From Eubacteriales bacterium (GTDB taxonomy: Bacteria > Bacillota > Clostridia > Oscillospirales > CAG-272), in the NCBI GenBank assembly GCA_045588165.1, contig JAZNDP010000039.1:1-50509 (forward strand): a DNA stretch of 50,509 nt, given 5' to 3'. Below the pieces are notes generated by a model. That model worked only from the letters and a program-made list of their open reading frames with translations. It searched no databases and was not told the origin of the DNA. The translations under genes were made by a program, and so were the position numbers. Positions 21,623 through 40,439 of the stretch are shown here, piece after piece; position 1 is the stretch's first letter, and each line of letters starts with the position of its first letter.

Positions 21623-23182
21623 TTACGTATTCGGTTTCTCGGTAAACTCGGCGACAATGCTTACGGTATGCTCCGAAAATTGCAAACCTGACAGACGGCT
21701 GACCGTGATGGAAAGGGTATCCCCCTTCCTCAGCTGATCAAGCACCGAATAATAGTCTCCAATGGACTCGATCGCGCGTCCGTTCATGGATACGATCCGA
21801 TCGTATTGCTTCAGTCCCTCATGCGACGACTGCATGATATAAACGCCATTTGGCATCGCTCTGTTTCCGCCAAACAGGGAGGACACCGTTAAATCGTCCC
21901 GATATTCCGCAGAAAAGGGTAAGGCGAGCTGATTTGTCACGTATCCGTATTGGATCAGGTCGGAGGCTACCTGCCAAGCAACGTCAACGGGAATTGCAAA
22001 TCCGAGCCCCTCGATTCCCGTAGCGGATTGCTTGGCGTTGACGATACCGATCAGGCGACCCGCCATATCAAACAATCCTCCTCCCGAATTTCCGGGATTG
22101 ATCGCCGCATTGGTCTGCAACAGAGTCATTCGGTTGCCGTCTACGATCACCTGCCGATCCTTGGCACTGATGATGCCGTTGGTCACCGTTCCTCCCAGCT
22201 CGCCAAGCGGATTTCCAATGGCAAGTACGCTCTGTCCCACCTTCAGGCTTGAGCTGCTTCCCATCACCGCGTAGGGCAGTCCCGTCGCGTTGATCTTCAG
22301 AATCGCGATATCATGCTGCGCATCCCCCGCCACATACTCTGCCTCATGCTCCTCACCGTTTGTCAATCGAACGGTAATGGCGGTCTGCTCGGGCGTATCG
22401 CCAATCACGTGATAATTCGTAATGATATAGCCCCTTCCCTCCTTATCAATGAGAACACCGCTTCCCGCGCCGCCCGTTACATACTGTCCGTAACCGAACA
22501 TTCCCGTTTGTACCTTCGCCGTTACGATCTCCACCACGGTATCGGCAACACGGTCAACCACCTGCTCAATACCCAGAAGAGTTGCCCCTGAGGAATCGAT
22601 CTCCACGCTCACCTCAATGGAAGAATCGTTTTTGACGACGGTCACCGTTCCGTACTCTCCGTCATGTACAGGCTCGTTTTCCTCCGAAGGGGTTGTGTTC
22701 AAGCCAAGCCGCAAACCAATAAAGGCGCCTCCCAGCAGAGCCAACGCCACCACCAGCACAGCGGGAAGGATCAGCCACGCGCGGGCTTTCCCTCCGTTTT
22801 TCCGTTTGGTTGCCTCTTCTCCCATTTCGTCTACGACGGTGAAATCCGGCACGTAGTAGGGAGGCTTGTAGCTACAGGAATAGTTTTCGGAGTTACCGTC
22901 CTCCTCTATTTCATCTTCCCCGCCTGTCGGATCTCCTTCACCAGCGGACGGTACGTCTTTTTCACGATCTTCGCCTTGTTGCGGATCTGCGCTGGCTTTT
23001 TGGCAAGAAGGATCTTCTTTTTCCTCATGCTCCGCGCCGATCTCTCGAAGGCTTTCCTCGTTTTCCGATACGCCTTCTTCGATATTTTGACCCATCGTAA
23101 CAGTATCATTATCGGTCTCCTTCTCTATCTCTTCGTTTATATGATTTCGATCTTCATTCAAGTTGTCTTGAAACTCCTTCAT
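21623..23182 (-). CDS. htrA: HtrA/DegP-family membrane-anchored serine protease with PDZ domain
   Basis: Acidic N-terminus, one TM, ITNYHVI, DIAILK, INPGNSGG, GLGFAIP, C-terminal PDZ-like region. Confidence 0.92.
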   Translation of the reverse strand: MKEFQDNLNEDRNHINEEIEKETDNDTVTMGQNIEEGVSENEESLREIGAEHEEKEDPSCQKASADPQQGEDREKDVPSAGEGDPTGGEDEIEEDGNSENYSCSYKPPYYVPDFTVVDEMGEEATKRKNGGKARAWLILPAVLVVALALLGGAFIGLRLGLNTTPSEENEPVHDGEYGTVTVVKNDSSIEVSVEIDSSGATLLGIEQVVDRVADTVVEIVTAKVQTGMFGYGQYVTGGAGSGVLIDKEGRGYIITNYHVIGDTPEQTAITVRLTNGEEHEAEYVAGDAQHDIAILKINATGLPYAVMGSSSSLKVGQSVLAIGNPLGELGGTVTNGIISAKDRQVIVDGNRMTLLQTNAAINPGNSGGGLFDMAGRLIGIVNAKQSATGIEGLGFAIPVDVAWQVASDLIQYGYVTNQLALPFSAEYRDDLTVSSLFGGNRAMPNGVYIMQSSHEGLKQYDRIVSMNGRAIESIGDYYSVLDQLRKGDTLSITVSRLSGLQFSEHTVSIVAEFTEKPNT

Positions 23183-30393: not shown

Positions 30394-30419
30394 CAAAAAT
30401 TTGTCCTGATGAATATCCT
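30393..30419 (+). promoter_or_regulatory. sigK/sigE-like mother-cell promoter
   Basis: ACA-16-AATATCCT resembles the sigK consensus mACa-N16-CATAnnnT (one mismatch); no sigA promoter seen. Confidence 0.35.
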
Positions 30420-30480
30420 TGTAAAGAGAGGTAGCCAAAATGAGCTATGCCTCTTAATTCCATTTGAACAGGAGATATTC

Positions 30481-31344
30481 ATGGCAATTATTGAAAATTT
30501 TGCAACGGTTCGTTACACCTCCGGCGGTGTAACGAATACCGCTGTTTCCAATCTGGCAGAGGTTGAGCTGGAGGCGTCGGTTACTCTGGGCAAGACTTCT
30601 TTGGGGAACACCTATGAGGATTCTTCCCTTCTCACCTACGTGCTGACCATTCAAAACACCTCCGGCGCTCCCCTGACCAATCTTCGCATTGAGGACGATC
30701 TGGGCACCTTTCTCGCCGACACCTTGGAGCTGACACCCCTGACCTATGGCGGGAATGCGATTCTGCTGATCAACGGTCAGGATACAACCGTCCAGCTTAC
30801 CGTGGACGCCTCTCAACCGTCCCTCCTCGTCTTTACCATTCCCTCCTTGGCCACCGGGGCAACCGCCAATATCGTATACGATGCCCGAGTCAACAATTTC
30901 GCGCCTCTTACCCTTGACTCGTCCATCGTCAATACGGCAACCCTTTCCGCAGATACGGAGTGCGAGTCCGCTACCGCCTCCGAAACCGTAACCGTTGAAA
31001 ATGGTGCTAATGTCAGTGTATTCAAACAGATGTCGCCCAATCCTGTGGTATGCGGCGATTCCCTGTCCTATCTGATCCGTATTTCCAATTACGGAAACTC
31101 GCCCGCAGAGGACGTTCAGATTACGGATGCCTTTGATCCTGCGCCCGACAATATCACGATAACGAGAAACGGCATTCCCCTTGTTGCAACCGACTACACC
31201 TACGTGAACGGAGTTCTCACTCTTCCGCCCGACGGAAGACCCGGCGACACCGTTCCCGCCGCTACCTTTACAAGAAATCCCATCACGGGCGAGGTAACGA
31301 CAACTCCCGGAATTGTAGAATATATCATCACGGGAACGATCTAA
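30481..31344 (+). CDS. Tandem DUF11-like (conserved repeat domain) beta-rich protein, no signal peptide
   Basis: Two repeats: LGKTS..LLTYVLTIQNTSGAPLTNLRIEDDL and VFKQMSP..GDSLSYLIRISNYGNSPAEDVQITDAF; Thr-rich; AGGAG RBS. Confidence 0.8.
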   Translation: MAIIENFATVRYTSGGVTNTAVSNLAEVELEASVTLGKTSLGNTYEDSSLLTYVLTIQNTSGAPLTNLRIEDDLGTFLADTLELTPLTYGGNAILLINGQDTTVQLTVDASQPSLLVFTIPSLATGATANIVYDARVNNFAPLTLDSSIVNTATLSADTECESATASETVTVENGANVSVFKQMSPNPVVCGDSLSYLIRISNYGNSPAEDVQITDAFDPAPDNITITRNGIPLVATDYTYVNGVLTLPPDGRPGDTVPAATFTRNPITGEVTTTPGIVEYIITGTI

Positions 31345-31384
31345 AAAAAAGACCGTCTCTGCCATGGCAGAGACGGTTCTTTTC
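31343..31384. terminator. Bidirectional terminator
   Basis: AAAAAAAG-ACCGTCTCTGCC-AT-GGCAGAGACGGT-TCTTTT. Confidence 0.85.
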
Positions 31385-31400
31385 ATTTCGTAATCATCAG

Positions 31401-33050
31401 TCAGTTTTCCTGACGAAGAGCGCGAAGTCGTTTCATCACGTCGTTCTCGCCTCGTCCGAAGTAGTCGTGGAGTTGACGGTATTCCTGATACAGCCGATCA
31501 TAAATTGCCACGTTACTCGGTATAGGCTCGTAGTTTTTCCCCTCCCGAACGGCAAGGGATTCTGAAGCGAGGGACAGATCGGGATACGCGCCTGCGGCTA
31601 CCGCGGCATAGATGGCGCTTCCGCGAGAAGAAGACATGGGAGCGTTGGGAACGGTAATGGTGCGACCCAAAACATCCGCATAGATCTGCATGGTCATATC
31701 ATCCTTTTCCGCAATTCCTCCCCCCGCCATGATTCGCGCGGGAGAAATCCCCGCCTCCTCAAAGGTTTCCAGAATCATACGGGCGCCATATGCGGTTCCT
31801 TCAATAAGAGCACGGTATATCTCCTCCGGTTTTGTTTGAAGGGTCAGACCGAGAATCATTCCGCTCAAGGAGGCATCAGTCAGAACACTGCGGTTTCCGT
31901 TAAACCAATCCAACGCTAACAATCCGCTCTCTCCGGGGGAGAGTGTCTGCGCCTTGGCACGAAGAAAATGGTGAAATCCCATTCCGGATTCCCTTGCTTC
32001 TTCCGCATATTTTGCGGGCAAGCATTGCTTGACAAACCAGTCAAAATGGTCGCCGCAACAGATCTGACCCGCCTCATAGGTATAATATCCCGGAACCACG
32101 CCGTCCTTCACAACGCCACAAATTCCCCTGATTTCTCTTTTTTCCTTGGAGTGGATCATCTGTACGCCGGAGGTACCAAGGATCAGAAGCATATTTCCCT
32201 CATCCACAAGTCCTACGGCGGGCATTGACGCGTGGGCATCCAAAACAGGCATCGAAACGGGTGTTCCGACCAAAAGTCCCGTCAATGCCGCCCCCTCCTC
32301 GCTCAATCTGCCGGCGATCTGACAAATCGAATTGGTATCGGAGGGCATTTTATTCCCAATGAGATCTCTCATTTTCGGATCTAACGCCTCAAAATAATCC
32401 GCCGACGGGAATCCGTCCTCCTCATTCCAAAACGCTTTATATCCCGCAAAGGGCGCGCTTTGGGTAAGACAGCCCGTCAATCGGTAAGAAATCCAATCCG
32501 CCGTTGTCATAAACCGAGCGGTCCTCTCGTATATCTCGGGCGCTTCATTCAGGATTTGCCATATTTTGGGGATCATCCACTCGCAGGACACCTTTCCTCC
32601 GTATCGCGCAAGCCACCTCTCCCCTCTCTCCTCCGCGATCCGAGTTGCCATCTCCGCTTCCTCGGTCGCCGTTTGATGCTTCCAGAGCTTGACGTAAGCG
32701 TGGGGCGCCTCCTGATATTCCTCCATCAGGCACAGAGGATCGTATCCTTCGTCCACGGGCAACATGGTACACGCGGTAAAATCAAAGCCAAGTCCGATCA
32801 CCTCATCGGGAGCGATTCCCGACAGAGACAAAAGCTCGGGAACCGTATGACGCAAGGTCTGAATATAGTCCTGCGGATGCTGGAGAGCGCTCCCCCGCGG
32901 CAACGCTGTCCCACACGGCAGCTGCTCATCCATCACACCGTGAGGATAGTCATACACCGAGGAGGCAACGATCTCTCCCGTATCGACATCAAGCATAACG
33001 GCGCGTCCCGACAGAGTACCGAAATCAATTCCTACCGTATATCGTCCCAT
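31401..33050 (-). CDS. araB: Ribulokinase (FGGY family)
   Basis: GIDFGTLSGRA, LQHPQDY, DFTACT, YVKLWKH, YEAGQ, LDWFNGNRS; GGAG RBS before MGRYT. Confidence 0.88.
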   Translation of the reverse strand: MGRYTVGIDFGTLSGRAVMLDVDTGEIVASSVYDYPHGVMDEQLPCGTALPRGSALQHPQDYIQTLRHTVPELLSLSGIAPDEVIGLGFDFTACTMLPVDEGYDPLCLMEEYQEAPHAYVKLWKHQTATEEAEMATRIAEERGERWLARYGGKVSCEWMIPKIWQILNEAPEIYERTARFMTTADWISYRLTGCLTQSAPFAGYKAFWNEEDGFPSADYFEALDPKMRDLIGNKMPSDTNSICQIAGRLSEEGAALTGLLVGTPVSMPVLDAHASMPAVGLVDEGNMLLILGTSGVQMIHSKEKREIRGICGVVKDGVVPGYYTYEAGQICCGDHFDWFVKQCLPAKYAEEARESGMGFHHFLRAKAQTLSPGESGLLALDWFNGNRSVLTDASLSGMILGLTLQTKPEEIYRALIEGTAYGARMILETFEEAGISPARIMAGGGIAEKDDMTMQIYADVLGRTITVPNAPMSSSRGSAIYAAVAAGAYPDLSLASESLAVREGKNYEPIPSNVAIYDRLYQEYRQLHDYFGRGENDVMKRLRALRQEN

Positions 33051-33067
33051 GGTATACTCCTTTCCCA

Positions 33068-33811
33068 TCAGCGGAAAGGTGAGAAATCCTCCCTCATCAA
33101 GGAGGTTCTTACAATCGAATAGTATTCCCTTGTGGGGTCTCCCTGCAGGATCCCGTTTTTCAGCTTCAGCGCCGTGATCAGCATCTCGGGATTCAGATAT
33201 TCTCCCACCGTTGCTCTCAGGACGGTCCGAATTTTTACACTCCCCTCCTTCTCATCGAAGGAAAACTCCGCCGAATGGATCAGAGGAACGATATCAATTT
33301 CCTTTTCTCCCGACTTGGTCTTTTTCGTCAGCATCAGGGGAGAGACAGAAAGGGTATGGCGAAGCCCCTCCACGTCCGCCTCCGTGATGCCCTCGGAGTG
33401 GAGCTCCAGCTCGTAGGACGCCCAAGCGATTTCGGAGAAATCACTCTTGGGCACGTAGGCACTCTCGATCTGAAGCTCCTCCGTCAATTCCCCGTTGAGC
33501 CGCTCCTTGATCTCCTCGCAATCCATCTCCCGATCGATCCGAATATCCAAAAACTCGTACACGCTCTGGGCGCCTACGCTCAAAGGAGTGGAAAATACAA
33601 GCTTTGCGTGGGGATTGAAGCCCTTGGTATACCACGCGGGAATACAGGCGCGGGTAATCACGCGGTTAAAGGTCCGCTGCACGTCCAAATGAGAAATATA
33701 CTGCAGGCTTCCAACCTTTCTGAATTTCAGTCGAACGGTGCGGGGGAGCTCCAGCTCGGGCAGAGACAGCAACCGCTTCCGTTCCGTTAATTTTTGACCT
33801 TGGGACAGCAT
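33068..33811 (-). CDS. Radical SAM-linked protein (TIGR03936/DUF2344 type)
   Basis: RLKFRKVG..YISHLD..R, GFNPH, LSVG..S..E; overlaps the radical SAM gene. Confidence 0.9.
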   Translation of the reverse strand: MLSQGQKLTERKRLLSLPELELPRTVRLKFRKVGSLQYISHLDVQRTFNRVITRACIPAWYTKGFNPHAKLVFSTPLSVGAQSVYEFLDIRIDREMDCEEIKERLNGELTEELQIESAYVPKSDFSEIAWASYELELHSEGITEADVEGLRHTLSVSPLMLTKKTKSGEKEIDIVPLIHSAEFSFDEKEGSVKIRTVLRATVGEYLNPEMLITALKLKNGILQGDPTREYYSIVRTSLMREDFSPFR

Positions 33812-35646
33812 GTGCGCTCACCTCCCAGCTTATTTGCTCCGCATCCGCTACACTTTTCACGGCAATTGGGAGTAGTAGACTCCGCATAGGCGCGATCGTG
33901 CTCTCTGCGCAAAAATTCCTTGCTGACACCGCAATCGATAATATCCCAAGGCAGCACCTCGTCAAGACCATATTTGCGGTTCGCATAGAAGGCAGGATCC
34001 GCTCCCGTTCTTTCCAGAACCGAGATCCAGCGATCGTAATCAAAGCACTCATCCCACGCGTCAAACATAAATCCCTCACGGCAGGCAAGCCCCAGAGCGG
34101 GGGCGAGACGGCGGTCTCCCCGCGCCAACACCGCCTCAATTCGGCTGACCTTGGCATCGTGGTGGGTATAGCGGATCTTCTTATCGGTAATCAGGCTTCC
34201 CAGATACTCCTGTTTCTCCGCCAGCATCTCCAGGGTATCCTGCGCTTCCCACTGGAAGGGGGTGAAGGGCTTGGGGATAAAGCAAGAAACGCTGATGGTC
34301 ACCTGAGGCTTTTTCGTCCGATTACGGTTGGGACAACGGTAATATGCGTCGACGACGTGAGAAGCAAGCTCCGCGATACCGGCAAGATCCTCATACGTCT
34401 CGGTGGGAAGTCCTGACATGAAGTAGAGCTTCACCGTATTTTTTCCCGCCTCAAACGCAACGTTCACCGCGCGAAGGAGATCCTCCTCCCGCACATTTTT
34501 GTTGATCACGTCCCGCAGTCTCTGACTTCCCGCCTCGGGCGCAAAGGTCAGCGAGGAGGACCGAACCGATGCGATCTTATCCATCAATTCCTTTGTAAAG
34601 CTATCCACTCGCAAGGAGGGCAAGGACAGGCTGACCATATTCTCATCCGTCCATTCGAGAAGTTTAGTTGTCAGCTCCTCCAGATGAGTATAATCGCTGA
34701 TGGACAGCGAGGTCAGGGAGATCTCGTCATATCCCGTGGACTCAAACAGGCACTTTGCCTGTTCGTTCAATACCTCGGGGGATTTTTCCCGTACAGGACG
34801 GTAGATAATCCCCGCCTGACAGAAGCGACAGCCGCGGATACAACCGCGGAACACCTCCAACATCACTCGGTCATGAACGGTTTCAATATAGGGCATGACC
34901 ACCTCCTTCGGGAAGAAGGCGGTATCCATATCCTTCATGATCCGCTTGGTGATCTTTTGGGGAATATCATCGTAAATCGGCGTATATTCCCGAATGGTTC
35001 CATCCTCATGGTAGCTGACACGGTACAGGGAGGGCACGTAGATTCCCTCGATCGTTCTCGCCGCCTCATGGAGATACTCCGCCTTGGTGTATCTTCCCTC
35101 CTCCTTCATACGGATATACAGACGGCACAGCTCGGGCAGCATTTCCTCCCCTTCTCCGATGTTGAACAGATCGAAGAAATCAGCAACGGGCTCGGGGTTA
35201 TAGGCGCAGGGACCTCCTCCGATAATCAGAGGATAGCTGTCATCCCGATCCTTCTGCCACAGGGGAATATTGGCGAGATCCAGCATGTTGAGAACGTTGG
35301 TATAGCTCATTTCATATTGCAGAGTAAAGCCGATCATATCAAAATCGGTCAGAGGATCTCCGCTCTCACAGGCACACAGAGGAATGTTATGCTTTTTCAT
35401 CTGCTCCTGCATGTCGATCCACGGATCGTACACCCGCTCGCACCATACGTCCTCCTCCCGGTTCAGGACACCGTAAAGAATCCGAATTCCAAGATTGGAC
35501 ATTCCGATCTCATAGGTATCGGGAAAGCAGAAGGCAAATCTTGCCTTTACTTTGGATTTATCCTTTATAATCTGGCCGTATTCTCCGCCGGCATACCGTC
35601 CCGGCTTTGAAACAGCCTTTAAAATCGTGCTGATGTTTTTATTCAT
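33787..35646 (-). CDS. B12-binding radical SAM protein (TIGR03960 type)
   Basis: KPGRYAGGE, FPDTYEIGMSNLG, RGCIRGCRFCQAG (CxxxCxxC), FAPEAGSQRLR, C-terminal CREKCSGCG. Confidence 0.93.
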   Translation of the reverse strand: MNKNISTILKAVSKPGRYAGGEYGQIIKDKSKVKARFAFCFPDTYEIGMSNLGIRILYGVLNREEDVWCERVYDPWIDMQEQMKKHNIPLCACESGDPLTDFDMIGFTLQYEMSYTNVLNMLDLANIPLWQKDRDDSYPLIIGGGPCAYNPEPVADFFDLFNIGEGEEMLPELCRLYIRMKEEGRYTKAEYLHEAARTIEGIYVPSLYRVSYHEDGTIREYTPIYDDIPQKITKRIMKDMDTAFFPKEVVMPYIETVHDRVMLEVFRGCIRGCRFCQAGIIYRPVREKSPEVLNEQAKCLFESTGYDEISLTSLSISDYTHLEELTTKLLEWTDENMVSLSLPSLRVDSFTKELMDKIASVRSSSLTFAPEAGSQRLRDVINKNVREEDLLRAVNVAFEAGKNTVKLYFMSGLPTETYEDLAGIAELASHVVDAYYRCPNRNRTKKPQVTISVSCFIPKPFTPFQWEAQDTLEMLAEKQEYLGSLITDKKIRYTHHDAKVSRIEAVLARGDRRLAPALGLACREGFMFDAWDECFDYDRWISVLERTGADPAFYANRKYGLDEVLPWDIIDCGVSKEFLRREHDRAYAESTTPNCREKCSGCGANKLGGERTCCPKVKN

Positions 35647-38309
35647 GAACCTTTTTTCTTTCCTTTATTTGCTTTTCGTTGTTTATTTTTTTGGAGCTTC
35701 TCTGCCGCGCCAACCAATTCCGCGCTCCATGATTCCAAGGTGAAATAATTTTTTTGGGGGAATACAAGGACGGCGAGGATCAGAACACCGAGGAGCGGTA
35801 GCGTCTGAAGCAGCATCACCCAGTACTGGTTGACATGGGGCATCCATCCGCATCCTAAGCAAAGCCCCGCCATCAATGCTCCAAGAATCAAAAACACGGC
35901 AATCAGAACTTTATTATATCGGAGGATCTTGGCAAGTCGCTTGCACCATACCGCCGCCTCCACTAATTTTAACCGAGAGGAGAGTGTCAGGATCTCGGTC
36001 ACAGGTCCTCTGCTTTTTCTTCTTCCGCCCTGTCTGAGATCCTCCGCGTTTTTGTGTACCACACTGACGGGGGTCACACCGAAGCGCCGCTGCTCCAGAA
36101 CGAAGGCGGAGTGGATCATCGGGTCAAAGGTTTCGATCACGCATCGGATCCCGTTCTCCTCCATACGCTCGATCAGCATCTCAAAAATCGGCTCGATCTC
36201 GTACGCGGCGCTGATCTTCGCGGAAACCTTTCCGTCAAGAGACACGCACAGCGTAGCTCTGCCATCCCATTCCTCGTTCATCGGGAAGGAGAGTCCGTAC
36301 CGTTGCAGATATCCCGCATCTCCCACAATCAAAACGTGCTTCCGATCGATGATTGCCTCAATTCCGTTTCTGGCAATTCTCCGAACAGAAATTCGGTCAT
36401 GCCGATAGCGCTCCGGTACCGATTCAAAAATTTTCGCCATAGGTCCGCCGATCTTCGCATACAACAGTTGTAAACAACCGAACAGATCCGACGTCTGACC
36501 CGACTCGTAGATGACCATTCCGGTATCCTTCGTTTCGCACTTTTTGAACAGGTGCAGATCGTTGAACACCAGATAATCCACATCCGAATAGCTAACCGTT
36601 CCATCCGTCCCTGTCAAGGCAATTCCGCGACGGGTCAATCGATAGGAGGACAGTCCCAGGGTGATGAGCGGAATCGAAATCACGGCGCATGGCAGCATCG
36701 CAAAAAGGGTCGCGACCGCCGTGGTACAAACCACCGCCAGGCTCTGCTTCAGCAATATGACGATCATTCCCGCCACCAGACTCAACAGTACGGCGGGAAG
36801 AAGGATCCACCGAATCATCGGATTGCTCATGTGATTTTCTCCCCGTACCGAACGGAAGAATCCTCTTGGGAAGGAAACCGACGCAGGGGCAAAGATCCGC
36901 TTCGTCCCGTCTATGCCGCCATGATACATCTTCTCCGCAACCGATCGGGCACCCTCATCCAATTCCAGCGTAAATTTGCTCGAATCGGAGGAGAAGACCA
37001 AAAACAGCCGTCTTTCTCTCCGCACCAAAACAAGCTCCGCGCAGGCGGTCAGGAGCATCCACAAAACACAAACAAAATGGAATACGGGTGGCTGATATCC
37101 CTCCGTGGGGACAAAGGCAATGAGCGTGTCATACGCCGCCGTGTAAAGCACCATCACCCCAAGAACGGAATAGACATCGGAACGGATGGTTACCAGCCGT
37201 TTGATTCCATTCCACATGGGTCGTCCCAAGCATACCGCCGCGATCAGCACAAACTGTAATCCGACGAAGAGATAGGACCCGAAATATGTATGATAATCGA
37301 TCAGCCCACCAAATTCTACACCGAACAAAGGCAAGGTATCATAGAGGAATACCAGAACAGCCATGGCGCCGATTCCCAACAGCCGCAGAAGGGCGCGAAT
37401 GGACCTATGGCGGTAGTCAGCAAGAATTTCCTCATTCTGCTCCGCGCCTCGGTACTCTCCGTCATCCTCCGCCGATTCGTCTTCCTCGGCAAATTCCTCC
37501 GTCACCTCGTCCTCCGCGATCTCCTCCAGCTCATCCTGACAACCAAATTGCAGCATGAGATCAAAAATCGATTCGTTGACGCAAAATTCCGCCGTTGCGC
37601 CCACCGATACCTGTTCTTCTTCCAAGGTTTCCTCTGACAACAGCGCGGACAGATCCTCTGTCTCTTCACACGTCTCTCCCGACAAAAAATCCTGTGTCAG
37701 CTCGGGCATGGCGATGGTTTCAATTTCGGGAAACGCATCGTACTCCTCCTGCTCCTCCACGCCAAACTCTGCCGTCGGCTCCTCCGCCACGAGGCGGATC
37801 TCCTCGTGGAGACAGGAAACGGGCTCCGGATCAGGCTCGGTCTGCAAAAGAGCCTCTGCATCCGAGACCTCTTCTTCTATTCGGATCTCTTCAGACTCCT
37901 CCGCAATCACATCGGTAGCCTCCTCGGCAATCGCTTCGACAGGGTCTTCCCACGGCGCGCAATCGAGCTCTTCCGCATTGGAACTCTCAACCTCTTCTTC
38001 AACTCCATCTTGCGCCAAGATCTCGTCCTCTCCCTCGTCCAATGCGAGAGAAGAATCACGGTCTTCCTCTGTCGTCTCAAATTCCAACAAAAGCTCCCGA
38101 TCAAACGCGTACTCATCCGAGTCCGATGCTTCGCTGTCCCCTGACAGACCGGCTCCATATTGCGCCCGAAGCTGCTGCTTCAGCTTTTTCTCGCTCAAAT
38201 TGGCGTTTTTCTTCCCTTCGGCTGTCTTTGGAGCCTCGTCTGCGGAATCTCTTTCCACGGATTCCTTGAGCAATTTCAGAATATCATCAATGTTATGTTC
38301 GTTATTCAT
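35643..38309 (-). CDS. Membrane protein with acidic disordered N-terminus and a degenerate P1B-type ATPase-like C-terminal half
   Basis: About 290 aa Glu/Asp-rich region, about 8 TM; LPCA..P...RRGIALTG, VDYLVFNDLHLF and NGIEAIIDRKHVLIVGD echo P1B motifs, but there is no DKTGT. Confidence 0.75.
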   Translation of the reverse strand: MNNEHNIDDILKLLKESVERDSADEAPKTAEGKKNANLSEKKLKQQLRAQYGAGLSGDSEASDSDEYAFDRELLLEFETTEEDRDSSLALDEGEDEILAQDGVEEEVESSNAEELDCAPWEDPVEAIAEEATDVIAEESEEIRIEEEVSDAEALLQTEPDPEPVSCLHEEIRLVAEEPTAEFGVEEQEEYDAFPEIETIAMPELTQDFLSGETCEETEDLSALLSEETLEEEQVSVGATAEFCVNESIFDLMLQFGCQDELEEIAEDEVTEEFAEEDESAEDDGEYRGAEQNEEILADYRHRSIRALLRLLGIGAMAVLVFLYDTLPLFGVEFGGLIDYHTYFGSYLFVGLQFVLIAAVCLGRPMWNGIKRLVTIRSDVYSVLGVMVLYTAAYDTLIAFVPTEGYQPPVFHFVCVLWMLLTACAELVLVRRERRLFLVFSSDSSKFTLELDEGARSVAEKMYHGGIDGTKRIFAPASVSFPRGFFRSVRGENHMSNPMIRWILLPAVLLSLVAGMIVILLKQSLAVVCTTAVATLFAMLPCAVISIPLITLGLSSYRLTRRGIALTGTDGTVSYSDVDYLVFNDLHLFKKCETKDTGMVIYESGQTSDLFGCLQLLYAKIGGPMAKIFESVPERYRHDRISVRRIARNGIEAIIDRKHVLIVGDAGYLQRYGLSFPMNEEWDGRATLCVSLDGKVSAKISAAYEIEPIFEMLIERMEENGIRCVIETFDPMIHSAFVLEQRRFGVTPVSVVHKNAEDLRQGGRRKSRGPVTEILTLSSRLKLVEAAVWCKRLAKILRYNKVLIAVFLILGALMAGLCLGCGWMPHVNQYWVMLLQTLPLLGVLILAVLVFPQKNYFTLESWSAELVGAAEKLQKNKQRKANKGKKKGS

Positions 38310-38339
38310 CCTGCCCTCCGTTTTTATGAAATAAGACCG

Positions 38340-39170
38340 TTACTGCTTTCTGTGCTGATGGGAAATTTCTGCCAGAATGACAGAGGCGGCGGTGGACACA
38401 TTAAAGGAATTTACGTGCCCGTACATGGGGATCGACACGATATAATCGGCGCACTCCTTCACAAGTCGGGAAACACCGTCCCCTTCACTGCCCATCACCA
38501 GAGCGCAGGGGCAGTTAAAGTCGGTATCGTAATAAGCAGGGCCCCCTGCCTCTGCCGCGAAAATCCAAATTCCCAGCTTTTTCAGCTCCTCAATGGTTGC
38601 GGAAAGGTTCGTCACCTTCGCGATTGCCAAGTGCTCAATGGCGCCGCAGGACGCCTTGGTTACGGCGGGAGTCAGTCCAACGGCACGTCGCTTCGGAATG
38701 ATCAGTCCGTGAGCGCCTACGCCCTCGGCGCATCGGATCAGCGCGCCCAGATTGTGAGGATCGGTAATGCCATCGGCGATCACCAAAAAGGGCTTCTCTC
38801 CCCGATCCGCGGCGATCTGCAAAATATCCTCAACGGAGCAGTATTCCTTCTCCGCCGCCATGGCGACCACACCTTGATGAACCGCATAGCCCGTCATGGT
38901 ATCCAGCTTGGATTTTTCGGTTTCCACCACGGGAATGTGCCGCTCAATCGCTTCGGCAACCAAAACCACGATAGAGCCCTCCCGCTCTCCGCGCTGAACC
39001 AGAAGCTTATCAATATCCCGACCCGACTTCAACAGCTCACGAACGGCGTTTCTTCCAATCACCAACCCCTCACACACGGGCTCGGTCTCCGAACGGCGCT
39101 CTCTTCTCTCGTCTGTGCGATTTTTTGTCGGTCGTTTTTTGGCATAATACTCTTTTTTGTTCTTTTCCAT
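38340..39170 (-). CDS. rlmB: 23S rRNA Gm2251 methyltransferase (TrmH family)
   Basis: GRNAVRE, HQGVVA, DPHNLGALIR, MGSEGDG, SFNVSTA. Confidence 0.93.
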   Translation of the reverse strand: MEKNKKEYYAKKRPTKNRTDERRERRSETEPVCEGLVIGRNAVRELLKSGRDIDKLLVQRGEREGSIVVLVAEAIERHIPVVETEKSKLDTMTGYAVHQGVVAMAAEKEYCSVEDILQIAADRGEKPFLVIADGITDPHNLGALIRCAEGVGAHGLIIPKRRAVGLTPAVTKASCGAIEHLAIAKVTNLSATIEELKKLGIWIFAAEAGGPAYYDTDFNCPCALVMGSEGDGVSRLVKECADYIVSIPMYGHVNSFNVSTAASVILAEISHQHRKQ

Positions 39171-39288
39171 GGTGTTCCTCCATGCAAATAAAATTTACCC
39201 CAAAAGGTATAACTATACTTATTTTAATTATATCATAAAATTCCTATTTTGTATATAGACAATGCAAAGCTTTTTTAAAAAATAAGGA

Positions 39289-39318
39289 AAAAAGAGCGAT
39301 TGCACGCAACCGCTCTTT
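39289..39318 (-). terminator. Terminator after the aldo/keto reductase
   Basis: Minus strand AAAGAGCGGTTGCGTGCAATCGCTCTTTTTT. Confidence 0.7.
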
Positions 39319-39332
39319 GGGATTTCTCTTCG

Positions 39333-40439
39333 TCAATTCTCAAACAGGTTACCGACCTGCTTCAGCTGCTCCATGATCTCAATTTTTTGCGGACATTTTT
39401 CCTCACACTGTCCGCACCCGATACAGTCCGACGCCCGTCCTCTCGTCCGGCTCAGTTCCCCGTAGGATGTACGCTCTCTTACGCCGTCGCCCCTCTTTGC
39501 TTGATTATACAGCTCAAAATATTCGGGGATCGCGATAGTCATGGGGCAATCCACCGAGCAATACTGACAGGCGGTACACGGAACGGCAATCGTCCCCTTG
39601 ATCATATCTGCCGCCGTCATGACCTTGCTCTGCTCCTTTTCCGAAAGAGGAGAAAATTCCTTCATATACGAGGTGTTGTCCGTCAGCTGATCCATATCCG
39701 ACATGCCGCTGAGCACCATGATCACGCCCTCAAGCCCCGCGGCAAAACGAATTGCCCAAGAGGCAACCGAGGCGCGGGGATCAGAATTGTGAAAGAGCTC
39801 CGCTACCGCATCGGGAACTCGGGCAAGGGCTCCTCCCTTGACGGGCTCCATAACGATGATGGGCTTTCCGTGCTTTCTCGCTACCTCATAGCAAAGACGG
39901 GATTGCACCTTCTCGCTTTCCCAATCCAGATAGTTCATCTGAAGCTGTACCACATCCACCTCGGGATGGTCGGTCAAGATCCTGTCCAAAACGGCGGCGG
40001 AATCGTGGAAGGAAAAGCCGATCTTTTTTACCTTGCCTTCCTTCTTTTTTTGCATGACGAAATCAAACGCCCCAAGGCGGGTTGCGGTCTCGTAATGAGC
40101 GATGTTCAGGTTGTGCACCAGATAATAATCAAAATACTCCACTCCGCATCTCTCAAGCTGTTCTCCGAAAATGCGCTCCATGTCCTCTTTTTCCTTCAGA
40201 TACATGGTGGGAAGCTTGGTGGTAAGAATAAATCGGTCTCTCGGGTATCTCTCCACCAGCGCTTTGCGAACGACCCGCTCGCTCTGGGCGTCGTGATACA
40301 TATATGCCGTATCAAAATAGGTAAATCCCTGCTCCAGAAAGGAATCCACCATGCAGCACAGATGCTCCATGTTAATCGATTTTTTATCTTCAGGGTTTGT
40401 GAGCGGTAACCGCATCAAACCAAATCCAAGCTTTTTCAT
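39333..40439 (-). CDS. Aldo/keto reductase with C-terminal 4Fe-4S dicluster domain
   Basis: LGFGLMRLP, YFDTAYMY, GFSFHD, MEPVKGG, CTACQYC..CP and CIGCGQCEEKCP; AGGAG RBS. Confidence 0.92.
   Translation of the reverse strand: MKKLGFGLMRLPLTNPEDKKSINMEHLCCMVDSFLEQGFTYFDTAYMYHDAQSERVVRKALVERYPRDRFILTTKLPTMYLKEKEDMERIFGEQLERCGVEYFDYYLVHNLNIAHYETATRLGAFDFVMQKKKEGKVKKIGFSFHDSAAVLDRILTDHPEVDVVQLQMNYLDWESEKVQSRLCYEVARKHGKPIIVMEPVKGGALARVPDAVAELFHNSDPRASVASWAIRFAAGLEGVIMVLSGMSDMDQLTDNTSYMKEFSPLSEKEQSKVMTAADMIKGTIAVPCTACQYCSVDCPMTIAIPEYFELYNQAKRGDGVRERTSYGELSRTRGRASDCIGCGQCEEKCPQKIEIMEQLKQVGNLFEN

Follow-up and report, generated by a model that had tools for sequence, protein, structure and literature searches.

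Genes at the locus

The window analyzed here is a stretch of 50,509 nucleotides from an Eubacteriales bacterium (contig JAZNDP010000039.1). Its reverse strand carries a gene for a protein of 888 residues that resembles a P1B-type ATPase in predicted fold and lacks the catalytic motifs. For convenience, we call it the pseudo-pump. It is a real, conserved pseudoenzyme with a P1B fold, is distributed like a core gene, and is undescribed as far as we have searched. The reading frame is open over its whole length (Table 1), so the gene is intact, as the initial annotation held. It starts 30 nt past the stop of rlmB, with GGAGG ahead of the start, and its stop overlaps the start of a TIGR03960 radical SAM gene as ATGA. 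The run of rlmB, pseudo-pump gene, TIGR03960, and TIGR03936 is borne out by model searches, in which the neighbors pass the cut-offs of the RlmB, TIGR03960, and TIGR03936 models.

Homology to P1B-ATPases and predicted fold

The window protein has no Pfam match and matches TIGR01525 weakly (E 3.7e-4, far below the cut-off). A profile built from 33 close cores matches the Cu(I)-ATPase CopA of Legionella (LpCopA, 3rfu) with E 4.5e-6 and aligns the phosphorylation segment gap-free. The motifs first picked out by eye, LPCAVISIP, RRGIALTG, VDYLVFNDLHLF, and NGIEAIIDRKHVLIVGD, are all found in the frame. They align gap-free with CPCALGLATP, GILIK, VDTVVFDKTGT, and N-domain segments of LpCopA and of canonical P1B-ATPases from related genomes. 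In Atlas, the 30 near clusters share no common Pfam family, and the nearest named ones are HAD and P-type Cu+ transporters.

An AlphaFold2 model built from a 58-row alignment has 501 residues with a predicted local distance difference test (pLDDT) score of at least 90, nearly all from residue 290 onward, and a disordered N-terminal arm. The top Foldseek match of the model is CopA (4bbj, E 5.1e-13); the structural similarity to P-type ATPases on which the initial annotation depended is present. VIA-align gives Z 20.9 to LpCopA 3rfu, 15–20 to other P1B structures, and at most 13 to Kdp and P2 pumps. The profile, Foldseek, and VIA-align scores are better than expected by chance for the homology to CopA. 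The model contains MA and MB, six core helices, and P and N domains in P1B order, and the eight-helix body and the P/N head are predicted to fold as in CopA. The rmsd is lowest (5.2–6.3 Å) mostly against E1 ligand-bound states, but other E1 entries fit the model no better than E2 entries (8q73, 8.1 Å; 7zrh, 9.9 Å). The conformation may therefore be E1-like.

The order-wide family profile scores 44 CopA-type proteins, which were chosen as its best hits, at 127–214 bits; two further P1B proteins reach 79 and 66 bits. According to these profile scores, and with an unrooted tree, the ancestor is most likely a CopA duplicate. The same genome encodes an intact CopA elsewhere (C124:990-3470); the pseudo-pump would therefore be a repurposed duplicate.

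Loss of catalytic and metal-site features

We take 69 loci across the order and exclude one canonical CopA from another order and two split genes. The remaining 66 loci and the window make 67 members. Comparison with the 44 CopA proteins uses 66 members, one being dropped because its core is not trimmable.

None of the 67 members carries DKTGT, TGES, GDGxND, or CPC, and the absence of TGES and GDGxND from the window protein, reported at the outset, holds. The ortholog alignment shows that the loss of DKTGT and TGES is shared by every member, so no close ortholog keeps the motifs as recent decay would predict. DKTGT is likewise carried by 0 of 59 and 0 of 127 search matches. In the window protein, NDLHLFK occupies the position of DKTGTLT, in accordance with the proposed loss of the phosphorylation motif. 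The canonical phosphorylation position is never Asp in 58 close homologs (58 of 59 matches, one fragment excluded); order-wide it is Asp in 13 of 66 members, with the rest of the motif gone.

Only a small part of the CopA signature survives: among 153 columns conserved at ≥90% in the 44 CopA proteins, 12 are retained at ≥50% in the 66 members. The actuator region between M2 and M3 spans 47–84 aa in members versus 125–126 aa in CopA and is largely deleted. The segment past TGD, which bears GDGxND in CopA, spans 46–65 aa versus 83–86 aa (with four CopA rows mis-trimmed) and is deleted rather than mutated. The HP His (0/66), the TGD Gly, and the hinge Asp all stand at 0%. At the TGDN position, T/S and D are retained, whereas G and N are at 0%, and the P-domain Lys of motif III is at 3%.

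The metal path is lost as well. CPC in M4, YN in M5, MxxSS in M6, and HP in the N domain, all features of CopA, are not found, and no Cys, Met, or His column in the membrane helices reaches 40%. An N-terminal metal-binding (HMA) domain has no Pfam match in the window protein or in eight distant members, and the region in its place is predicted to be disordered.

Without the phospho-Asp motif, TGES, and GDGxND, the Post-Albers cycle cannot run. Two papers describe these three motifs as required for the P-type ATPase cycle (PMC7858053, PMC6592433). Since the required motifs are lost, the pseudo-pump, judged from its sequence, is unable to run the pump cycle. It is homologous to P1B-1 pumps but falls outside the active family, each catalytic or ligand feature tested having failed.

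Conserved residues gained instead

A new motif, xDxD(L/I/V)FP, replaces DKTGTLT, with D584 in 55/67, F588 in 59/67, and P589 in 47/67 members. Acidic residues at 584 and 586 occur jointly in 53/66 members; position 586 is His in 56 of the 58 close relatives of the window protein. Lys is found at position 599 in 46/67 members (Lys or Arg in 60/66), and Y703, at the position of the hinge Asp, in 62/67. Around the former TGDN, D729 is kept in 66/67, N731 in 50/67, and T/S727 in 49/67 members. According to the alignment, these residues appear to lie at the former active site and the N–P hinge.

Of 220 columns in the P and N domains, 25 are conserved at ≥60%, versus 11 of 278 in the membrane segments, where they are mostly Gly, Pro, Leu, and Trp. 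All eight helices are kept, with the prolines of M3, M4, and M6 and a new WxxP in M6 (W838, 58/67; P841, 52/67). The only inner polar membrane column of note is Q835 (31/66).

Acidic N-terminal arm

Residues 1–290 contain 99 D+E versus 15 K+R, in accordance with the Glu/Asp-rich N-terminus described initially. They mostly have pLDDT <50 (85–117, 121–244), with short helices at 7–22, 40–51, and 246–274. The first of these (IDDILKLLKESV) is the short amphipathic helix that was proposed to cap the N-terminus; it is predicted there, and its motif is present in 49 of 58 close homologs. A helix resembling (F)S(L/I)DDIL(A/K)EF is found in 34 of 67 N-termini order-wide, versus a shuffle mean of 4.5. 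No other protein of this genome carries a convincing copy of the motif.

The median arm length is 255 aa (0–894), and the arm is net acidic in 57 of 63 members. Three members of family f5 (L126–L128) are minimal proteins of 543–545 aa without the arm, still located behind rlmB. The conserved function is therefore carried by the core. Among the 1425 ORFs of the genome, the only other membrane protein with an acidic arm is an HtrA-family protease (window 21623-23182, minus strand), which has a 130-aa acidic N-terminal region ahead of a membrane helix.

Distribution, age, and selection

A broader profile detects the gene in 149 of 151 sampled genomes, covering all 26 families of the order, with best E values ≤2.8e-43. 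One miss (G156) has the 5′ part of the gene at a contig end behind rlmB, and the other (G119) has neither rlmB nor the pseudo-pump gene. All 18 genomes of the window's genus carry the gene. Most genomes of the order give a single match to the family profile; three with several matches, on re-examination, have one full-length member each plus partial P1B-type matches.

Outside the order, none of 288 genomes reaches E 1e-44 with a 74-row profile (one genome unscored, and at most four candidates scored per genome), whereas 12 of 12 same-order genomes score at E ≤4.8e-93. Every one of the best outside matches (22 in the class, 19 in the phylum) is a canonical CopA. A very divergent ortholog in a sister order is possible. 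Near-universal in its order and not found outside it, the gene is thus a marker of the order and a strong candidate for a core function.

Of the 12 closest pairs, 10 have a measurable dS; in these, the ratio of nonsynonymous to synonymous substitution rates (dN/dS) over the core is 0.06–0.14, and the window and its nearest locus give 0.12. Together with the retention of the motifs in 0 of 67 members, these values rule out recent decay. In a quick, unrooted IQ-TREE tree, 33 members lie on one side of a long branch and 19 canonical P1B proteins on the other (SH-aLRT 100), and members mostly group by host family. The gene is thus near-universal and mostly single-copy in its order, old, vertically inherited, and under selection. 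In three loci (L049:8221-10448, L164:5268-6560, and L024), it is split in two or interrupted by a stop codon, through either assembly error or a real break.

The family is large, with 991 clusters at 50% identity (E ≤1e-30) in a representative library, and no Pfam or NCBIfam model covers it. Named carriers include Ethanoligenens harbinense (ADU27562.1), [Clostridium] cellulosi (CDZ24420.1), Lawsonibacter, Anaeromassilibacillus, Butyricicoccus, Intestinibacillus, Feifania, Oscillospiraceae, and Acutalibacteraceae; Butyricicoccus pullicaecorum and Lawsonibacter hominis are, like the first two, cultured. From these names, we take the order to be Oscillospirales. Named members, those of cultured species included, are annotated as 'hypothetical protein' or 'Uncharacterized protein'; occasional mislabels are one 'magnesium transporter' and one automatic 'Cu+-exporting ATPase' cluster.

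Linkage to rlmB and to the radical SAM pair

The conserved genomic link of the pseudo-pump gene is rlmB. It lies directly upstream in 63 of 66 order-wide loci; one exception is at a contig edge, and two are truly separated. Of the 61 loci in which the gap between the two genes was measured, 59 have values from −25 to +73 nt. In the set of 32 close loci, rlmB precedes the gene in all 29 that extend far enough. Where the gene is separated from rlmB, it stays intact. At one locus (L046:2877-4073), RlmB has a long basic N-terminal extension of ~140 aa with 30% K+R.

The initial annotation coupled the protein to the radical SAM pair, and the neighborhood and co-occurrence analyses do not support this. 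Across the order, only 4 of 66 loci have the pair next to the gene, and these all belong to the window's family; in other families, it is adjacent in 0 of 60 loci (four with <2.2 kb downstream). Among 78 genomes of other orders, in which the pseudo-pump family is not found, 71 carry TIGR03960; within the order, TIGR03960 is not found in 5 of 61 genomes, all carrying the pseudo-pump gene. Coupling is rejected, since the pair is unlinked outside the window's family and TIGR03960 is common in other orders, where the pseudo-pump is not found; the adjacency is local synteny. Order-wide, the commonest downstream neighbor is an EF-G paralog (NF009381), directly 3′ in 13 of 64 loci listed. Three loci continue with era-recO-mutS2, and three with dipicolinate synthase genes.

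Upstream of rlmB, a promoter-like site matches the consensus at 10 of 12 positions. It is among the two best sites in 31000-39500 and the sole one of them with TG; that interval holds 12 promoter-like sites versus 7.1 in shuffles. Contigs from RNA runs cover all 30 bins into which 12 kb at one member's locus were divided, and because every bin is covered, they show neither expression nor co-transcription. At the other end, a ribulokinase-family gene (window 31401-33068, minus strand) closes the rlmB run. It meets a DUF11 repeat gene (window 30409-31344, plus strand) at a terminator-like hairpin (31351-31378) readable on both strands.

Table 1 Features of the pseudo-pump locus in the window and related loci elsewhere
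Feature	Position	Strand	Remarks
Pseudo-P1B-ATPase ORF	35643..38309	−	888 aa, open throughout
Amphipathic acidic helix (res 7-22)	38244..38291	−	Family form (F)S(L/I)DDIL(A/K)EF
Acidic N-terminal arm (res 1-290)	37440..38309	−	Predicted disordered; 34% D+E; replaces metal-binding domains
Membrane helices MA, MB, M1, M2 (res 296-439)	36993..37424	−	Alignment and predicted model
Actuator remnant (res 440-496)	36822..36992	−	Predicted strand-helix-strand-helix, TGES core deleted; lengths and DSSP of model
LPC at CPC metal site	36687..36695	−	Pro 53/67 (sole conserved); second Cys position C in 1/67; CPC 0/67
NDLHLFK at DKTGTLT position	36543..36563	−	Family consensus xDxD(L/I/V)FP
N-domain fold (res 593-700)	36210..36533	−	HP to GP; Z 12.2, rmsd 2.4 Å to ATP7A N domain 2kmv
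TFDP at TGDN position	36120..36131	−	D729, most conserved acidic residue of family
Membrane helices M5, M6 (res 781-849)	35763..35969	−	CopA YN, MxxSS ligands gone; new WxxP in M6
rlmB, 23S rRNA Gm2251 methyltransferase	38340..39170	−	TIGR00186, 220 bits, above cut-off; order-wide upstream neighbor
Promoter-like site TATACA-17-(TG)-TATAAT, extended −10, upstream of rlmB	39227..39255	−	Consensus match only
TIGR03960 B12-binding radical SAM gene	33787..35646	−	Above cut-off; neighbor locally only
TIGR03936/DUF2344 radical-SAM-associated gene	33068..33811	−	Above cut-off; neighbor locally only
Downstream-neighbor loci	L130, L139, L148, L150, L152, L154-L158, L166, L167, L169, L171
Dead P2A-like loci	G000:C26:33354-35005 (L221); L049:4970-7411; L152:7851-10061; L153:8122-10578
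Further dead P2A-like loci	L252, L254-L256, L260, L261, L266, L281, L282, L287

A probable membrane scaffold

The initial annotation proposed a P1B scaffold reused without pumping, as a sensor, scaffold, or channel. Reuse without pumping, maintained by selection, stands, with the motifs lost in 67 of 67 members and dN/dS as low as given above. Among the three roles, the scaffold becomes the leading reading, the sensor a rival, and the channel is disfavored.

The loss of the motifs, together with near-universal and selected retention behind rlmB, makes it likely that the protein serves a core cell process as a membrane scaffold without catalytic activity. Specifically, we lean, with modest conviction, toward a scaffold of CopA descent that holds a partner protein at the membrane and is a core gene of the order. 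The membrane body would anchor the protein. Residues D584, D/E586, F588, P589, K/R599, Y703, D729, and N731 would lock the P/N head in one rigid shape, and the locked head could offer an acidic docking cleft. The acidic arm, usually 100–600 aa, would act as a flexible tether, the short helix of which catches the partner; because one family lacks the arm, it would be accessory. Expression would be driven by the rlmB promoter, as for a housekeeping gene.

Leading candidate partners are translation or ribosome-maturation factors (the neighbors being RlmB, the EF-G paralog, and Era) and division or envelope proteins. The neighbors point weakly to translation, and the order's lack of FtsA points weakly to division. 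FtsA is above the cut-off in 0 of 61 genomes of the order, with only weak partial matches to MreB-sized frames. However, FtsA is also without a match at E ≤1e-25 in 87 of 150 genomes of the class; the complementarity with FtsA is therefore not specific and is a lead only. Replacement of DivIVA is rejected, since DivIVA is present in 56 of 61 genomes of the order. It is missing from all three genomes of family f11.

A bolder proposal, which we regard as tentative and rather doubtful, is that the ancestor of the order made a duplicated copper pump an essential, order-defining membrane hub that, through its locked P/N head and acidic arm, tethers a core machine, either translation and ribosome maturation factors or the FtsZ ring. 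If so, a free-standing pseudo-P-type ATPase would belong to the core cell biology of a whole bacterial order.

Several points weigh against the scaffold. The partner is putative. Order-wide identity to the window protein is only 12–19%; the conserved patch is therefore small and could be purely structural, serving as helix caps or hinge packing. The rlmB link is broken in two genomes and may reflect promoter dependence only. The whole arm is missing in the three f5 members, and the helix motif is weak or missing in about half of members. The helix pattern was derived from the same sequences on which it was scored, and the motif occurs in no other acidic-armed membrane protein among the genome's ORFs. 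Finally, D/E584, D/E586, and D729 could equally bind a cation or small ligand, which favors a sensor.

Alternative functions

In a membrane sensor, the rebuilt acidic cleft would bind a cation, nucleotide, or small ligand, and the P/N head would signal to a partner via the arm. The joint acidic residues at 584 and 586, K/R599, D729, and T/S727 fall, by alignment, at the former ATP-phosphate site, and the N-domain fold is retained. However, the ATP-binding HP His and the TGD Gly are each at 0 of 66, the Mg site of GDGxND is gone, and neither an output domain nor a linked regulator gene is found. We consider a sensor unlikely, though worth keeping in view.

A passive channel or facilitator could have arisen from the membrane body of the pump after loss of the actuator. 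The eight helices with their M3, M4, and M6 prolines and the new WxxP, and the low rmsd to several E1 ligand-bound structures, would fit this. However, further E1 entries fit no better than E2 entries, no Cys, Met, or His column stands out in the helices, and Q835 is the sole notable inner polar column. A strongly conserved polar core is not kept in the membrane helices, which makes the channel improbable.

A new HAD-type phosphatase or phosphotransferase could use the DxD of xDxDLFP, since the DxD-like pair ends strand 1 of a HAD-fold domain and T/S727 is present. However, the gap-free alignment puts the acidic pair one residue away from where the nucleophile should be, neither the motif III Lys (3%) nor motif IV (GDGxND) has been retained, and the close relatives mostly have His at 586. 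With the pair shifted and motifs III and IV gone, an enzyme of this type is about as improbable as the channel, or slightly more so.

That the protein anchors the TIGR03960/TIGR03936 radical SAM system to the membrane, or serves it as an accessory subunit, is very unlikely. The pair adjoins the gene in all 32 close loci, with stop/start overlap at 10 of 31 measured junctions. However, this adjacency is rare order-wide, TIGR03960 is common in other orders and not found in five genomes with the pseudo-pump gene, and the two lie ~0.17 and 0.88 Mb apart in two single-contig genomes.

Equally slim is the chance that the protein assists a live or dead P2A-type ATPase as an accessory subunit. In four loci (f20, f13), the gene immediately preceding rlmB is of P2A type, dead in three and near-intact in one, and dead copies occur in at least six families, with a partly decayed copy in a seventh. 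However, it is a neighbor in 4 of 68 loci only, and 6 of 71 genomes of the order have no P2A-type match at E ≤1e-30, all six carrying the pseudo-pump. Obligate pairing is not supported, given these six genomes.

The dead P2A-like proteins form a second kind of dead P-type ATPase, without DKTGT, GDGxND, and PEGL; a quick tree, in which long-branch attraction is possible, separates them from 40 canonical P2A proteins. The partly decayed form is at L225. In f20 and f13, the dead gene is just before rlmB, and a near-intact version occupies the same place in L154. In the genome of the window, the dead P2A-like gene follows a Clp-ATPase-like gene and is cut by a contig end. Separately, G000:C100:11956-12918 and 31244-32998 are two halves of a P2A-type ATPase gene, ~18 kb apart and parted by an apparent integrated element; the ORFs after the first half are presumably recombinase-like and repressor-like.

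A functionless relic carried along with rlmB, to which 2 of 68 loci with a split or stop-interrupted gene might point, is already refuted by the dN/dS values, the retention in 149 of 151 genomes, and the intact gene apart from rlmB, and has a negligible chance of being right.

Comparison with known systems

New here are the range of the family across the order, its presence in cultured species, and the finding that the radical SAM link does not hold. P-type ATPases are usually regarded as pumps, and the pseudo-pump family departs from that view; its losses also show what a P-type ATPase can do without and still fold. The order includes many abundant gut commensals, and the presence of the gene in cultured species makes knock-down, localization, and pull-down feasible. 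In the literature covered, with most subscription papers and supplements outside its scope, we find no description of the family, no free-standing bacterial pseudo-pump family, and no paper combining two of TIGR03960, TIGR03936, DUF2344, and radical SAM.

The pseudo-pump shares with the P1B-1 Cu(I)-ATPases (CopA of Legionella, 3rfu/4bbj, and of Archaeoglobus, 7r0g; ATP7B; HMA4) the MA-MB-M1 to M6 topology, the P and N folds, and conserved Gly and Pro positions. Unlike them, it has no phospho-Asp motif, TGES, GDGxND, HP, CPC, YN, or MxxSS. It has instead an actuator remnant, an acidic disordered arm in place of metal-binding domains, and a fixed place behind rlmB. KdpB of KdpFABC, which the model matches in fold with Z 12-13, is a P-type ATPase body serving within a complex; it is catalytically active, with all motifs present. 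PopZ, HubP/FimV, and ZipA have an acidic flexible arm with a short amphipathic helix. Their resemblance to the arm and helix of the pseudo-pump serves as a lead only.

The nearest published precedent found is a degenerate P4-ATPase-like domain in guanylyl cyclase beta of Plasmodium (PMC6592433). The domain is eukaryotic, P4-derived, and fused to an active cyclase, whereas the pseudo-pump is bacterial, P1B-derived, and free-standing, without a catalytic domain.

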